Below, in pieces: positions 47,373 through 63,764 of a DNA stretch of 64,000 nucleotides. Position 1 is the first letter of the stretch, and each line of letters opens with the position of its first letter. The notes under the pieces were generated by a model. The model saw only the letters and a program-made list of their open reading frames with translations. It did not search any database and was not told the origin of the DNA. The position numbers were made by a program, and so were the translations under genes. The stretch comes from Escherichia phage JLBYU50: sequence record OK272470.1; one strand, given 5' to 3'.

Positions 47373-47395
47373 TTTCGTGTTTTTATAGGTGTGTT

Positions 47396-54461: not shown

Positions 54462-54477
54462 ATAACATTTCATACCA

Positions 54478-54504
54478 GGGCGCACAAAGCGCCCTTTCTT
54501 TTTA
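54478..54504 (+). terminator. Rho-independent terminator
   Basis: AGGGCGC-ACAAA-GCGCCCT followed by TTCTTTTT. Confidence 0.6.
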
Positions 54505-54707: not shown

Positions 54708-54780
54708 AAATGATAATCATTCTTATTTATAGCTGATTATTTATGCAATAAACTGCATAATGCAATAATGATAATCATTC
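54708..54780. promoter_or_regulatory. Two Fur-box-like sites
   Basis: AAATGATAATCATTC at 54708-54722 and AATAATGATAATCATTC at 54764-54780. Each contains the 13-nt core AATGATAATCATT of the GATAATGATAATCATTATC consensus. Confidence 0.45.
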
Positions 54781-55154
54781 TTAACTTATGACCATCTAAC
54801 CTATAAAATAATAAGTTATCTAACTAAATTAAAGCTAACTATTTCACCTTTATTTATAACTTACTGTTACTATCTCATTGATAACCTTATATTAAACAAC
54901 AATAACTAATATAAATCATTATTAAGCTAACTATAATCTATCTAACCTTTAAAACTATAACTATAATCTATCTAATTGTTGCACAAAGTAACTATTAAAT
55001 TGTTAGTAACATTACTAAATAATTAATATCCTATTTATTTATGATCTAATCTTTACCTTCCTATTTATCACCTAACTAATCATTTCATACAATAATTATA
55101 ACAAGAAATATAATTCGCAAGCGTATCATTAGCAGCCTATGCCGGACACATAGG

Positions 55155-55303: not shown

Positions 55304-55602
55304 AATGTTTGGAACATTGGCTATAATATAAGCTATCCAATAATAAACATAGTGGATAATGACACTGATGATCATAATGCGCCACCTTCCAGGGGGCGCT
55401 ATGTGAACACAAAAAATCTTTCTTGTCAAGAAAAATATTACCATTATTGCGCAAAATTATTTATATATGAATAGATGGTTTTTCATACTATTATTGTTAT
55501 TTGTCGGGCATAACTATCCCTATTTGTTGAGCCTACTTTCTTAAAAGCGCAATAAATCAGAATTATCTTGATTTTTAGTGAGTTTTATAGTATAGAAAAT
55601 AT

Positions 55603-55621
55603 GCAAATGATAATCATTATC
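55603..55621. promoter_or_regulatory. Near-consensus Fur box
   Basis: GCAAATGATAATCATTATC matches GATAATGATAATCATTATC at 17 of 19 positions. Confidence 0.5.
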
Positions 55622-55788
55622 AGCTATCTTCCACGGGTGGCACTATTTCACGCCAGATCATTTCATTTGGCAAGGTGTATATAGATGTTTAGACTTGCCA
55701 AGCCATTGATTTACTTAGAATTTATCTGTTTTGTTGTGAGTAGTACCTTTCTTGCTCAGAAAATAATCAAAAGTCTTATAAGTCATTG

Positions 55789-55820
55789 AATGATAATGCA
55801 AATGATAATTATTCTCATTG
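55789..55820. promoter_or_regulatory. Overlapping Fur-box-like repeats
   Basis: GAATGATAATGCAAATGATAATTATTCTCATTG: two AATGATAAT half-sites followed by TCTCATT, the partner of the 47.4 kb boxes. Confidence 0.4.
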
Positions 55821-56111
55821 ATATTTGAGGGGGACGGTCGGCAGAAATCGGGGGCGCTGAAAATCGCGTTAAGCACCTCTCGCAAGCGAGCAGTATTTTG
55901 CGGCAAGTTATTGATATTATTGACTTTACGCTTATGAAAAGGGGGCGTGTCGAAATAAATCGGGTATACCGGAAAATTTTTGTGGCATAGATATTTATTT
56001 GTCTATATTATGTACAAAGGGGTGTGTTAAAAATAATAGGTATATATAGAATAATTGATAGGGAAATCCTATACTAAATCCTTCATTAATGATGTTCCTA
56101 TGTTGCTGTTC

Positions 56112-56140
56112 TTGTAACAGATGAAAAGATGCTATATGAT
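56112..56140 (+). promoter_or_regulatory. Candidate promoter (TTGTAA-17-TATGAT)
   Basis: -35 56112-56117, -10 56135-56140, upstream of RBS aaggag and ATG 56178. Confidence 0.35.
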
Positions 56141-56177: not shown

Positions 56178-56543
56178 ATGTGTGTTCCTCTTAGCAGTCC
56201 ACTGCTGTTAGAATTTTACAAAGCATGGATGGAAGATCATTCCTCAATGCATCGTGAGAATGTTGGTTTGTGTATTTGCCTTATGGATTATCTGGCAACC
56301 ACTATGTCAAAGAAAAAGCCTACGCAAGAAGATATAGAACATTTCAAAATGGTTCGTAGCAAAACGCTGGAAGAGATGAAATGGCAATTCACGTGTGCTG
56401 GGTTATCCTCCTTCCTGCCCTTTAATGATGATCTTCTGTGTTATGAAGATGAAGGTAAGAAACATTCTTGCCATACTAACCAAGGAAGATTGCAGTGGGT
56501 GAAAGACAGAATCGAAGATGCAAATAATGCTTGCATTGAATAG
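56178..56543 (+). CDS. Hypothetical protein, paralog family A (member 1)
   Basis: Start at MCVPLSS after RBS aaggag. Shares LL.FY..W......GLC.CL.D.L ... PFN ... RL.WV.DRI with 58467 and 59459 ORFs. Confidence 0.45.
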   Translation: MCVPLSSPLLLEFYKAWMEDHSSMHRENVGLCICLMDYLATTMSKKKPTQEDIEHFKMVRSKTLEEMKWQFTCAGLSSFLPFNDDLLCYEDEGKKHSCHTNQGRLQWVKDRIEDANNACIE

Positions 56544-56613
56544 AAATGTCTGTACACTGTGTTCCATAAGATATGCAATATCGCGCATAACAAACTACTA
56601 ATGAGAGGTGTAA

Positions 56614-57072
56614 ATGAAAACTGTATCTTTGTATCTTGCTAACACGGAGCGTGTACATAATCTTGTAAAAGAATGCGGTGTGAGTGTTCAATTTAACATA
56701 GGAAAGCCTTCCGTGGTGACAGGCAGTGAGATGTGTGTTATTGATTTCCTCAATGAATATTTTCGTGGAAAACCTATTGCTCGTCACTTCATTCAAGAAA
56801 TGCGAGATGTACTACAGGCTTATGAATTCTACCCAGAAATTTGTGAACGCTATGAAACTATTCTTAGTTCTGTAGAAGATCCAGATACTAGTGAAACAGG
56901 TGTTTCCCACTTACTGTGGATGTTGAATGAAATTCAGGATGGGTGTAATGGTATGTCTGAAACCAAACGCCATCGTTGGCTAGGCTATATTCAGGGTGTT
57001 ATGGTTATGAAAAACCTTATTACCGTTGATGATGAACGTAATGCTACACGCCCCGTCTTTAATGGAGCATAA
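56614..57072 (+). CDS. Hypothetical protein
   Basis: 152 aa after RBS gagagg. Confidence 0.45.
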   Translation: MKTVSLYLANTERVHNLVKECGVSVQFNIGKPSVVTGSEMCVIDFLNEYFRGKPIARHFIQEMRDVLQAYEFYPEICERYETILSSVEDPDTSETGVSHLLWMLNEIQDGCNGMSETKRHRWLGYIQGVMVMKNLITVDDERNATRPVFNGA

Positions 57073-57073
57073 C

Positions 57074-57289
57074 ATGAAAAGCATTCAGGTGTGTATTGAA
57101 AATAATTGTGGTTATCTGGGGTTGACACATGTTGCTTTCCCTCTTATGTTAGATGCTGATATCGCTTACAGCGGAGTTGCTTATGTGTCATTCAAGACAA
57201 TGAGCCAAGTACCTGGCTGGAAGTGGGAAGTAGTTGATGTTGTTGAAGGAGAAGATTATGTTTTCCTTCCACACGAATATACTGTTTAA
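57074..57289 (+). CDS. Hypothetical small protein
   Basis: Start at MKSIQVCIEN after RBS ggag. Confidence 0.4.
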   Translation: MKSIQVCIENNCGYLGLTHVAFPLMLDADIAYSGVAYVSFKTMSQVPGWKWEVVDVVEGEDYVFLPHEYTV

Positions 57290-57304
57290 AGAGAGGAAAA
57301 GAAG

Positions 57305-57481
57305 ATGGATAAACAAACTACTGTGTACTTAGTAACAAAGAATACCCCAGGCTGGAGCCAATGCAGCACTGTACCTTACAAGATCTGTGCAACATTAGAA
57401 CTAGCACAACGCGCAGAAGCAGAAGTGGATGCCATGCAACACAGCTATGGTGAGATCATTCCTTTTACTCTTGAACAATAA
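57305..57481 (+). CDS. Hypothetical small protein (58 aa)
   Basis: ATG after RBS agagaggaaaag. Not in the ORF track (under 60 aa). Confidence 0.35.
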   Translation: MDKQTTVYLVTKNTPGWSQCSTVPYKICATLELAQRAEAEVDAMQHSYGEIIPFTLEQ

Positions 57482-57492
57482 GGAGTTGTGTA

Positions 57493-57945
57493 ATGTTTGA
57501 AATTGGTAAAGTGTATCGTTTTAAAAACCCATCCTATATCCGTAAGTTTGCTAACATGTCTGAGTGCAATAGCAGGATTGCTTCTTTCTTAGGTGATTCC
57601 TATTTCCGTGTATTAGATGTGGATGATTGGTATGGTGTCACTGCTTTGCAATCCTTAGCAGGAGAACAAGAAATTATCGCTCAAAATGAAGGAGACTTTC
57701 TTCAGTGTTACACGTTGCTTGCAAAAAGTGAATTTGAGTATTTTGTAGAAGTCTTAGAGGAAGCACCAAAAAGTAAACACGAAGAGAAATACCTGCTTGT
57801 AGTGGATGGAGTTCCGATCATGGAAACTATCTCCCGTGAGGAAGTTGAAAAAGAGGCGAAACGTTACAAGCTGGATCGTACACAGAGTGTAGTTGAAGTC
57901 TATTCTCTTGTTGGTGTTGCAGATATTAGTGTGAACATCGTATAA
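57493..57945 (+). CDS. Hypothetical protein
   Basis: 150 aa after RBS aaggag. Confidence 0.45.
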   Translation: MFEIGKVYRFKNPSYIRKFANMSECNSRIASFLGDSYFRVLDVDDWYGVTALQSLAGEQEIIAQNEGDFLQCYTLLAKSEFEYFVEVLEEAPKSKHEEKYLLVVDGVPIMETISREEVEKEAKRYKLDRTQSVVEVYSLVGVADISVNIV

Positions 57946-57948
57946 TAT

Positions 57949-58161
57949 ATGTGTAATGACAGATACATTCTTCGTGTATCTGATAAGTCTCCTATGTTTG
58001 ACTGGCGGGGCTGGTGGCTACTAGCTCCGATGCAAGGTCTGACAGACGTGGAAAAGGAGGCTTATGTGTATACAAAAGAAGAGATAGAAGATAGTCTTTA
58101 TTTGACAGATAACATTAAGAATGGTATCTTTGAGTGTAAATTGAAAGGAGAGGAAGAATGA
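57949..58161 (+). CDS. Hypothetical small protein
   Basis: 70 aa, tightly packed. Confidence 0.4.
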   Translation: MCNDRYILRVSDKSPMFDWRGWWLLAPMQGLTDVEKEAYVYTKEEIEDSLYLTDNIKNGIFECKLKGEEE

Positions 58162-58457
58162 CTGTTACAGAAAAACTGCGTTGTATTGCAAAGCAAAGTG
58201 GAGAAGGTTTATGGTTTCCTATTGATGAAGTTATTCAGGACTGTTATGACCAGGCTAAGACTGGCAAATACTCCAAAGCATTTAAACCATCTGTTTTCGG
58301 TTTGGATGACTATCCGACAAATGAACAAGCAAAGAAACGCCAAGTTGATTTGATTGATCTTGCTATGGAAGCACTACGAGAGCGTGGGCTTAGTAAGGTG
58401 TATGCTTTAAACACCAAAGAGGGTTTTGTAGATTCAGTGATCGTAGATTGGCATTAA
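58158..58457 (+). CDS. Hypothetical protein
   Basis: 99 aa, ATGA overlap with upstream gene, RBS aaggagagg. Confidence 0.45.
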   Translation: MTVTEKLRCIAKQSGEGLWFPIDEVIQDCYDQAKTGKYSKAFKPSVFGLDDYPTNEQAKKRQVDLIDLAMEALRERGLSKVYALNTKEGFVDSVIVDWH

Positions 58458-58466
58458 GGAGAAGCC

Positions 58467-58835
58467 ATGCAAGAGAATAATAAAGTGTGTAACATGAAAA
58501 GCAGCCCCTATTTGCTACAATTTTATGAATGGTGGTTAGAACAAGAAGATACAAACTTTAGCAAAAAGCATTATGGTCTTTGCACGTGTCTTGTAGACTT
58601 CTTGTACAATATTGCTTGGATAAAAGATGTTGAGAATGTAGCAAAGCTCCAATCCTCTGTACGAGAGGAAATGAAGGAACAGTTTAAGAAAGCAGGTTTG
58701 AACCATTTACACCCATTTAATACAGATTTCTCACATTACTTTACGGAAACAGAGCTAGGCATTGCACACCTTAATAAAGAACGTGTACAATGGGTGATTG
58801 ATCGTATTCGTGATATGGAGGAATATAATGGTTAA
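58467..58835 (+). CDS. Hypothetical protein, paralog family A (member 2)
   Basis: 122 aa after RBS aaggagaag. Motifs LLQFYEWW, GLCTCLVDFL, HPFN, RVQWVIDRI. Confidence 0.45.
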   Translation: MQENNKVCNMKSSPYLLQFYEWWLEQEDTNFSKKHYGLCTCLVDFLYNIAWIKDVENVAKLQSSVREEMKEQFKKAGLNHLHPFNTDFSHYFTETELGIAHLNKERVQWVIDRIRDMEEYNG

Positions 58836-59046
58836 GTTTAAAACTTTCTGTGCAATCACTGTTTGTCTTATTCTTGCATACGTGTTATTCTCTGGTATCG
58901 TTCGTTTAGGTGAGTATATGGCAAGAGAAGCTCGTGAAAGCGAAGCTAAAAAAGAACAGTGTATTGTGTTAAAGCATCAAAGGGATGCTGAAAAGTTTCT
59001 CGCACTTGATTGCAATCGTTATGTATCTTATCAAATGTATGAGTAA
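58828..59046 (+). CDS. Small membrane-anchored protein, paralog family B (member 1)
   Basis: Start at MVKFKTF after RBS ggagg. TM helix then EQCIVLKHQRDAEKFL, paralogous to 63540-63764. Confidence 0.4.
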   Translation: MVKFKTFCAITVCLILAYVLFSGIVRLGEYMAREARESEAKKEQCIVLKHQRDAEKFLALDCNRYVSYQMYE

Positions 59047-59055
59047 GGAGGATTT

Positions 59056-59280
59056 ATGGTAAAACGTCTGGAATGGGATGCGTGTACTGCTCACGCTTGT
59101 CACTGTGATATTGTGGAAGATCCTAATGGAGAAATGGTGTATTATGAGGATTACGAAGCATTGCATAATGCTGTGATCGCTTTACTGGATGATATTAGCT
59201 CACGCTATCCAGGACAACAGTTTACGTGTCCACATATCCAACTATTAGCCAAACTTACGGAGTATCCAAGTGTTTCATAA
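59056..59280 (+). CDS. Hypothetical small protein
   Basis: 74 aa after RBS aaggagg. Confidence 0.4.
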   Translation: MVKRLEWDACTAHACHCDIVEDPNGEMVYYEDYEALHNAVIALLDDISSRYPGQQFTCPHIQLLAKLTEYPSVS

Positions 59281-59458
59281 TATGGGTGTCCCTGAACAAC
59301 TCCTCTTTATCGTAGGATTAGTAGGCTTACTGGCGGCTGGCGCTAAAGCCGCTTCTCACACGCATCACATAATGTTAAGATTTCTATTCCTACTCCCTTC
59401 TATCCTCGTACTATTAGTCATACTGATCGATAACATTTTGCACAATTAAGGAGAGGTT

Positions 59459-60043
59459 ATGAGTAAAATTATACCAAGCAGTTATGAATTATTGCAGTTT
59501 TATGTATATTATATAGACTGGGTTAATAGATCGAATGTTAAAGACAATGCGATGTTTAGTAAAAACATATGTTTAACAGAAAGTATCTTCCGTTACTGGC
59601 ACACAGGTAGAAAGTGTACACACAGTGAAGCTATGCGCATTGTAGGAGAATATCTGGAGCAATTGCAAAAAGCAGAGCTACCTGTCCTTCACCCATTCAA
59701 CGAATCTAAAGAAGAATTAGAACAAGAATGTAGGGAAGGTAAGTGCCATTTGAATGAAAAACGTATAGAATGGGTGAGGCAACGTTTAGCCGATGCAGGG
59801 AATCCTCCTAGTGACTCTGACTATACGTGGTATGATGTAGAGGGTTTAGTTCAAGGTTTTGAGGCTTGTGCTATAGATAATACCAACTTTGCCAAAGTTT
59901 TATGCGAGGCTTATGACCTGGCAGATAAAATCCGAAATCACGGATGGAAACAAGAGCATAAAGAATCATATGAACGCCTTGACAAGATTTTCAAACAGAT
60001 CTATTCTAACCACAAGAAGATGTTCCAAATGGAGGATGTGTAA
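59459..60043 (+). CDS. Hypothetical protein, paralog family A (member 3, extended)
   Basis: 194 aa after RBS aaggagagg. Motifs LLQFYVYYIDW, HPFN, RIEWVRQRL. Confidence 0.45.
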   Translation: MSKIIPSSYELLQFYVYYIDWVNRSNVKDNAMFSKNICLTESIFRYWHTGRKCTHSEAMRIVGEYLEQLQKAELPVLHPFNESKEELEQECREGKCHLNEKRIEWVRQRLADAGNPPSDSDYTWYDVEGLVQGFEACAIDNTNFAKVLCEAYDLADKIRNHGWKQEHKESYERLDKIFKQIYSNHKKMFQMEDV

Positions 60044-61523: not shown

Positions 61524-61868
61524 ATGTTGGCTGATATTGAAATCCTTATGTACCGACAAGGTATGATCAAAATGTGGCTAGATTCTTTTAGTAACATATA
61601 CTCCACAGTACGATCAGCAGATGAGCGTAAAACGCTTATTTTATCTGCTATTGTTGATAAACAACGTTTCTTCAAGGAAATTTTACAAACAGGCTTCTCC
61701 GATGCAGGAGTAGAGATTGCAACTCTTAGTCTTGGGGTGCTGTCTTACTTGGAATCCGTTGTTTTATATGTCTTCTCTTTAGAAGAACACTTGCAATTTG
61801 AAGCATTAAAACTTATCTTAGATGCTGCAATTGATATAGAACAAAATCGAATTGATTCTTTTGAATAA
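61524..61868 (+). CDS. Hypothetical protein
   Basis: 114 aa after RBS gaggag. Confidence 0.4.
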   Translation: MLADIEILMYRQGMIKMWLDSFSNIYSTVRSADERKTLILSAIVDKQRFFKEILQTGFSDAGVEIATLSLGVLSYLESVVLYVFSLEEHLQFEALKLILDAAIDIEQNRIDSFE

Positions 61869-63539: not shown

Positions 63540-63764
63540 ATGAAGTCTGTAAACAAGTTGCAACAATTTTTGTTATCAACAGCAATCTTTTTGCTTTTGT
63601 TAATTGGTATTCTGTATGGTGCATCTAACTTATACAATCTACATAATGATGTAGAACAGAATAAAGAGAAGTGCATCATTCTAAAACACAAGAAACAAGC
63701 AGAAGATTTCTTAAAGAATAAGTGTTACAACTACATTGATTATGAGGAGACAAACAATGATTAA
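63540..63764 (+). CDS. Small membrane-anchored protein, paralog family B (member 2)
   Basis: 74 aa after RBS aaggagg. TM helix then EKCIILKHKKQAEDFL. Confidence 0.4.
   Translation: MKSVNKLQQFLLSTAIFLLLLIGILYGASNLYNLHNDVEQNKEKCIILKHKKQAEDFLKNKCYNYIDYEETNND

Follow-up and report, generated by a model that had tools for sequence, protein, structure and literature searches.

Three paralogous genes at a genome end of Escherichia phage JLBYU50 encode members of a large phage-restricted family of small, predicted helical proteins

A 64,000-nucleotide stretch of Escherichia phage JLBYU50 (sequence record OK272470.1; hereafter the window, numbered from its first letter) contains three small plus-strand genes, here called m1, m2 and m3, whose products share one domain with a set of little-described phage proteins. 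The closest described relatives include gp3 of coliphage N4 (ABK54374.1; EF056009, 1214–1528; 104 residues), which contains the same domain, scores 71 bits against the family profile and shares the motifs FL..Y..WL, GLC, LPFN and CHLN..R..W. In N4 the gene is part of an early block at the left genome end and is flanked by gp2 and gp15/16, described as early products of the injected virion RNA polymerase (PMC4496689). N4 gp3 differs from the window proteins in being encoded by a single-copy gene, in belonging to a podovirus with a virion RNA polymerase, and in sharing only about 30% sequence identity with them. The literature searched describes no function for N4 gp3.

The only members for which experimental data were found are PTXU04_00085, PTXU04_00086 and PTXU04_00087 of Xuquatrovirus PTXU04, three tandem proteins of about 95 residues encoded near the genome end. 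Each was scored 'Not Fit' in a CRISPRi-ART knock-down in a laboratory host, and each was 'unknown' by HHpred (PMC11879866, supplementary file 16). This result fits genes that are accessory, conditional or redundant, each being dispensable on its own. The triplet differs from the window genes in that its copies are adjacent, that the phage genome is 61.6 kb, and that the proteins lack the longer loop between helices 3 and 4. A motif search of the CRISPRi-ART supplements returned no further members. Direct matches were also obtained to the PHROG entries phrog_2510 (all three proteins), phrog_27059 (full-length m3) and phrog_6418, with E values from 1e-17 to 1e-139 (for phrog_2510, 1.4e-21 with m1, 1.3e-25 with m2 and 4.5e-17 with m3). 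These entries are clustering labels of 'unknown function' and are silent on mechanism.

In their placement at a genome end, the window genes resemble several well-known accessory sets, namely T7 gene 0.3 (Ocr), the T5 pre-early genes, the host-takeover module of SPO1 and the Tre genes in the terminal repeats of Twort-like phages. The genes in these end-adjacent sets are small and mostly non-essential; their expression comes first, and their products target the host. The resemblance is one of position; no sequence or fold relationship to these sets was found. Identity with Ksap2 (Bas60_220), a small protein of Stephanstirmvirinae that KpAvs2 senses (PMC11564622), was also considered and rejected, since the Ksap2 gene is on the opposite strand, flanked by nrdA and nrdB, and a search of that locus with the family profile gave no hit.

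The genes m1 (56178–56543), m2 (58467–58835) and m3 (59459–60043) encode proteins of 121, 122 and 194 residues respectively. Both m1 and m2 consist of a single family domain, and orthologues of m2 were identified as phi92 gp006, bas60_0152 and gp008 of Salmonella phage UAB_1. In m3, the domain occupies residues 1–115 (59459–59803) and is followed by a predicted disordered linker and a C-terminal three-helix extension of about 70 residues (59804–60043). The greater length that the first-pass annotation had assigned to the third protein, about 70 residues, was thus accurate (72–73 residues). The longest reading of m1 starts at 56121 without a Shine-Dalgarno sequence; the start at 56178, adopted here, has AAGGAG 6 nucleotides upstream. 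The starts of m2 and m3 are each preceded by TAAGGAG at 5 nucleotides, and in m3 the stop codon shares bases with the start codon of the following gene (TAATG). The three genes were compared with their orthologues in four related phages, and the ratio of nonsynonymous to synonymous polymorphism (pN/pS) was 0.02–0.12 (0.10 for m1 and 0.02–0.07 for m2), equal to or lower than that of the neighboring genes (0.00–0.40). These values indicate real genes under purifying selection. The proteins are mildly acidic, with isoelectric points of 5.5–5.7 and net charges of −5 to −6.

The homology of the three proteins is clear from pairwise comparison. BLASTP aligned m1 with m2 at an E value of 5e-26 (40% identity over 115 residues), m2 with m3 at 4e-11 (30% over 114 residues) and m1 with m3 at 3e-9. 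The corresponding Smith-Waterman z scores, calculated from 1000 shuffles for each pair, were 34.2, 15.5 and 11.9, and the real scores were never approached by the shuffles. This was the control that the first-pass annotation had named for its proposal of a paralogous family, and both the coordinates and the homology that it reported stand. A profile built on 100 diverse members matched m1, m2 and m3 with E values of 1e-33, 1e-36 and 5e-31 (the last over residues 4–118). No fourth member was found in six frames of the window, with profiles from either the three proteins or the 100 diverse relatives. The alternatives that the similarity arose by chance or from composition, or that the open reading frames are not genes, are refuted by the z scores of 12–34, the profile E values of 1e-31 to 1e-36, the Shine-Dalgarno sites, the low pN/pS and more than 1000 homologous clusters, and their probability is practically nil. 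The three reading frames are therefore almost certainly real, expressed-looking genes, and their products ancient paralogues that share a six-helix domain of about 110 residues from a large, phage-restricted family.

The family is far larger than close similarity alone would indicate. A word-indexed search found only 29 close clusters; when the family profile was run with HMMER against all 1.84 billion representatives, 1066 clusters were retrieved at E ≤ 1e-3, and 329 at the stricter threshold of E ≤ 1e-10. Most of the real members have one domain and a length of 100–120 residues. Two or three domains per chain are present in P0030, P0034, P0037 and P0059, one member is fused to DUF551, and several are embedded in longer proteins of the nin region of a lambdoid prophage, between lambda-P-like and RusA genes. 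These fusion partners (DUF551 and unannotated nin-region modules) are uninformative on function, as are the neighboring genes in four contexts, which are all small unknowns. One high-scoring hit, P0035 (2115 residues, 114 bits), is a translated satellite-like repeat with 22 repeats of ...LLPFNSNYLH...; it is an artefact rather than a homologue, and serves as a caution for automated family building.

By tblastn, the domain was detected in 177–221 phage records. The carriers include Stephanstirmvirinae, rV5-like phages, Rhizobium phages, Pectobacterium phages, PTXU04, N4-like Schitoviridae (of Escherichia, Erwinia and Achromobacter) and jumbo phages of Xanthomonas and Erwinia, with Salmonella, Klebsiella and Citrobacter among the further hosts. 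Another member is encoded in MK552140, a phage record of 264 kb that is apparently Burkholderia phage BcepSaruman; this phage is also represented among the structural matches described below. Only one of 72,556 plasmid records matched. An association with plasmid leading regions was accordingly rejected, since that single record is a phage-plasmid. A megablast search of E. coli genomes with a member of the lambdoid type gave no match. Neither the three proteins nor the 100 diverse members matched any Pfam or NCBIfam model or, in profile searches, any PDB sequence; eight members had no significant match in PADLOC, and the source names in the large-database searches were only 'hypothetical protein'. 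It is thus nearly certain that N4 gp3, PTXU04 gp85–87, PHROG 2510 and their relatives form one large phage-only domain family that has neither a Pfam or NCBIfam model nor a matching solved structure.

The family motif consists of S-S, L, F-Y, W, G-L-C, E..Q-F, P-F-N, Y, N..R..W-V. All of these residues are present in m1 and m2, which fit the colinear pattern of the first-pass annotation as it was described. That pattern is looser in m3, where the N-terminus reads LLQFYVYYIDW, with the tryptophan displaced by a three-residue insertion, the GLC block is degenerate (SKNICLTE) and the C-terminal motif is RIEWVRQRL. Apart from the GLC block and the phenylalanine of E..QF, which is replaced by leucine, m3 retains the family residues. 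Across the family, only Y20, P83, F84 and R106 are invariant; S13, L16, F19, W23, G37-L38-C39, E68, Q72, F73, L78, Y91, N103, W109 and V110 are at least 90% conserved. Most of the conserved residues either are hydrophobic or occupy the beginnings of helices and the two loops between helices (PFN and H.N). Variation is concentrated in the stretch between helices 3 and 4, and in helix 5.

Conserved cysteines had been regarded as a feature of the family, and this part of the first-pass annotation does not hold. Among the 100 diverse members no cysteine is invariant; the first cysteine of the GLC block is about 90% conserved, and the second is normally an asparagine. The GLC cysteine is replaced by lysine in P0064, and m3 has no cysteine at this column. 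His101 is likewise replaced by tyrosine or asparagine in P0059, P0037 and P0034. With no cysteine fixed across the family, nothing supports a role for metal binding or disulfides, and a zinc- or disulfide-dependent protein was rejected for want of an invariant set of cysteine and histidine ligands.

The m2 and m3 proteins were modeled with AlphaFold2, using a 21-sequence alignment as input for m2. The m2 model is a six-helix bundle with a predicted local distance difference test score (pLDDT) of 85.6 and a predicted template modeling score of 0.79. The N-terminal domain of m3 is predicted to have the same six helices in the same order, with a pLDDT of 62–90 per block of ten residues. Residues 115–125 of m3 have a pLDDT below 50, as expected of a disordered linker, and are followed by helices at residues 127–140, 144–161 and 165–189 with a pLDDT of 45–68. 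Full-length homologues of m3 are confined to one 90%-identity cluster, and the extension is thus specific to the m3 orthologue group. A Foldseek search of the PDB with the model returned nothing below an E value of 5. The structural matches in BFVD were only uncharacterized proteins from phages of Rhizobium, Achromobacter, Burkholderia, Pectobacterium, Delftia and Shigella.

Over the 5.3 kb that surrounds the three genes, identity is 95–97% to more than 60 genomes of Escherichia phages, each of about 146 kb, which include outra, EmilieFrey/Bas61, JohannJBalmer and Salmonella phage UAB_1; tblastn with m2 also recovers phi92. The window phage is therefore a phi92/phAPEC8-like E. coli myovirus of the Stephanstirmvirinae (Justusliebigvirus/Phapecoctavirus). 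Four 'Campylobacter phage' records of about 146.4 kb each (MG065639, MG065656, MG065645 and MG065689; host C. jejuni) are also 97% identical to the window region, and their host assignment looks doubtful.

The ends of the UAB_1 record are annotated as 343-bp direct terminal repeats, and base 1 of this record maps to window position ~55530. The window therefore spans the physical genome junction, as in a circularized or concatemer-like assembly. The equivalent of the terminal repeat is located at ~55530–55872. On its upstream side, a terminator-like hairpin (54477–54495) is followed by about 1.6 kb without credible genes, and from 56178 small plus-strand genes run unbroken to the window end. 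In UAB_1, the orthologues of m1, m2 and m3 are gp001, gp008 and gp011 respectively, with gp001 the first gene past the left terminal repeat. A family member is also found at record positions ~390–950 in at least six other Stephanstirmvirinae records (WPEC6, REC, Schickermooser, WPEC4, 118_SA_NWU and ESCO5), and in N4-like phages the family gene is located 1–3 kb from the left end.

The number of family genes varies. Related phages carry one to nine genes (up to ten domains) per genome, and even with mutual identity above 95%, phage records contain two, three or four copies. In the window, unrelated genes separate the three copies, which together span 3.9 kb. Bas60 has orthologues of m2 and m3 and an unrelated gene in place of m1; in a metagenomic relative of 154 kb, four of the five copies form a tandem array; and Citrobacter phage Tr1 has nine genes with ten domains within 12 kb. 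EmilieFrey has two adjacent copies (A and B) where the window has m1 alone. In a three-way alignment, the DNA of m1 follows copy A for 330 nucleotides (about 95% identity), and then copy B with 100% identity to the stop codon. The switch occurs at TGGGTGAAAGA (56496–56506, plus strand), which is common to both tandem copies of EmilieFrey and encodes the conserved WVKD. Thus m1 is a recombinant of tandem copies of this kind, and the switch bears the mark of unequal homologous recombination within a conserved motif. The two end variants are each well represented in public data (73 member sequences in P0001 and 65 in P0003). Additionally, in the metagenomic sequence P0016 the m3 domain (59459–59803, ending in ...RLADAG) is fused to the C-terminus (61700–61868) of the product of the open reading frame at 61524–61868, implying that about 1.9 kb was lost naturally at a short DAG-coding stretch common to both. 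With high confidence, gene number shifts by unequal homologous recombination, tandem duplication, domain fusion and deletion.

The sequences themselves are much more stable. In a neighbor-joining tree of 27 domains, long terminal branches radiate in a star-like pattern, and identity between paralogues is 30–40%; the paralogues are therefore old. The local expansion proposed in the first-pass annotation is supported by the clustering of the paralogues, by the range of one to nine genes among related phages and by the recombination observed, but the expansion is old rather than recent. The accompanying suggestion of diversification is not supported by the low pN/pS between orthologues, which gives no sign of ongoing diversification of the amino-acid sequences. 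Present change in the family consists of gain, loss and recombination rather than fast amino-acid substitution.

A host-interaction role for the family is plausible, as judged from gene position and dispensability. The best overall explanation combines the family identity described above with such a role for the domain as a scaffold, and is held with somewhat less than even confidence. The scaffold part is itself tentative. It proposes a non-enzymatic protein, made early, that would bind host factors for takeover or counter-defense. The conserved residues (SS-L-FY-W, GLC, E-Q-F, PFN, Y-E and N-R-WV) would hold the helix bundle together, and the variable loop between helices 3 and 4, together with helix 5, would direct each paralogue to a different partner. 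Production would fall early in infection, and the proteins would bind host proteins in order to take over the cell or to neutralize defenses other than the classical restriction systems, and each would be individually dispensable on permissive laboratory hosts. A scaffold with differing partners is suggested by the conserved core and variable surface, the modular use in tandem and in fusions, the presence or absence of genes in close relatives, and the early or accessory position in both virulent and temperate phages. A non-enzymatic role also agrees with the substitution, in real members, of the cysteine and histidine that would be candidate catalytic residues. Early expression is a reasonable reading of the genome-end position in UAB_1, the other records and the N4-like phages. 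In a bolder form of this explanation, which is doubtful, each paralogue would bind and neutralize a different host immune or housekeeping protein, the domain would be a scaffold with a new fold that many phages of Proteobacteria employ, and the varying arrays of one to ten domains near the genome end would constitute a counter-defense repertoire that duplication, recombination and loss have shaped.

Several points weigh against a scaffold role. The literature searched on phrog_2510, on the early genes of Stephanstirmvirinae and on N4 gp3 contains no functional data, partner or phenotype. Early expression is argued from gene position only, the literature searched having given no transcript data for this phage group, and the division into a core and a variable surface is drawn from the alignment and secondary structure. 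Phi92-like phages with two to four copies are reported to be exceptionally susceptible to restriction-modification (RM) systems (PMC8594841), and Bas60, with its orthologues of m2 and m3, serves as a phage sensitive to the cyclic-oligonucleotide-based antiphage signaling system (CBASS). If the family is anti-defense, it does not act against those systems. Finally, strong purifying selection on orthologues and the retention of the motif in phages as distant as those of Rhizobium and E. coli could equally reflect one conserved biochemical activity instead of diversified binding.

That alternative, in which the domain is a small enzyme or a sponge for small molecules such as immune signaling nucleotides, with a ligand that differs by paralogue, is quite improbable. 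The polar set S13, Y20, C39, E68, Q72, N85, Y91, N103 and R106 is kept across very distant phages, and a small, phage-only domain encoded in early regions recalls the known sponges. However, neither sequence nor structure matched any solved structure, a set that should include the deposited sponges, and no sequence or fold likeness was found to solved immune-signal sponges or cleaving enzymes of the Acb1/2 and Tad1/2 kind. Only the tyrosine, the PF pair and the arginine are invariant, and the cysteine and histidine are substituted in real members. Moreover, the acidic character of the family proteins contrasts with sponge pockets, for which a positive charge is described; known sponges usually occur in one copy; and the use of Bas60 as a CBASS-sensitive phage counts against a sponge as well. 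The proteins may instead serve the phage's own program, as small helix-turn-helix-like regulators or cofactors of early-to-middle expression or of replication. This is unlikely, and a DNA-binding regulator in particular is disfavored by the charge of the proteins, the absence of a wing and their dispensability.

An anti-restriction function of the Ocr or ArdA kind, in which the proteins would be the first produced after entry and would shield the incoming DNA, is suggested by the position of m1 as the first gene past the terminal repeat, which recalls T7 gene 0.3. This explanation is very improbable. The proteins are mildly acidic and not DNA-mimic-like, they show no likeness to Ocr, ArdA or other solved anti-restriction structures, and plasmids, which commonly encode Ard proteins, almost never carry the family. 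Because the carrier phages are highly RM-sensitive, anti-restriction is unsupported, and for the classical type I–III systems it is largely refuted.

Other features surround the three genes. A sigma-70-like promoter candidate (TTGTAA-17-TATGAT; 56112–56140, plus strand) is located about 38 nucleotides upstream of the m1 start and overlaps the ATG at 56121; it matches 9 of 12 consensus positions, and is a weak candidate in that such sites are no more common in the region than in shuffled sequences. The gene-free stretch at the junction contains four copies of a repeat of the AAATGATAATCATT type (54708–54736, 54766–54794, 55605–55633 and 55800–55828), two of which fall within the terminal-repeat equivalent. 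The segment GCAAATGATAATCATTATC (55603–55621) fits the E. coli Fur-box consensus at 17 of 19 positions. With up to three mismatches, this consensus gives four matches at three window sites, one of them at 47393, outside the junction stretch, compared with 0.03 expected. The core of the repeat is kept in EmilieFrey, UAB_1 (within its direct terminal repeat), Eryne and PaulScherrer. These repeats could be candidate Fur-binding sites or iron-responsive elements of early control.

A second pair of paralogous small proteins is encoded at 58798–59046 and 63540–63764 (BLASTP E value 5e-10). Each has an N-terminal hydrophobic segment, and both contain the motif KE(Q/K)CI(V/I)LKH..AE.FL..C. Between m2 and m3, the gene at 59056–59280 encodes a cysteine-containing protein of 74 residues (phrog_23083) with a weak match to a Lar-like restriction alleviation PHROG family (E value 8.7e-4). 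The 150-residue protein encoded at 57493–57945 is annotated as 'goF mRNA metabolism modulator' in phage Eryne; it matches the GoF PHROG only at 9e-7, over residues 8–71, and its best match is phrog_3710, of unknown function.

Taken alone, the three genes are ordinary 'hypothetical proteins', and are so annotated in more than 100 GenBank phage records. What is added here is the link between the window genes, N4 gp3, PTXU04 gp85–87 and more than 1000 metagenomic clusters as one phage-specific family, which is a reasonable candidate for a new Pfam or DUF entry. Its abundance, its placement at the genome ends of unrelated virulent phages and its recombination-driven copy number make it a candidate for screens of host takeover and counter-defense, in which a partner found in one phage would carry over to many others.

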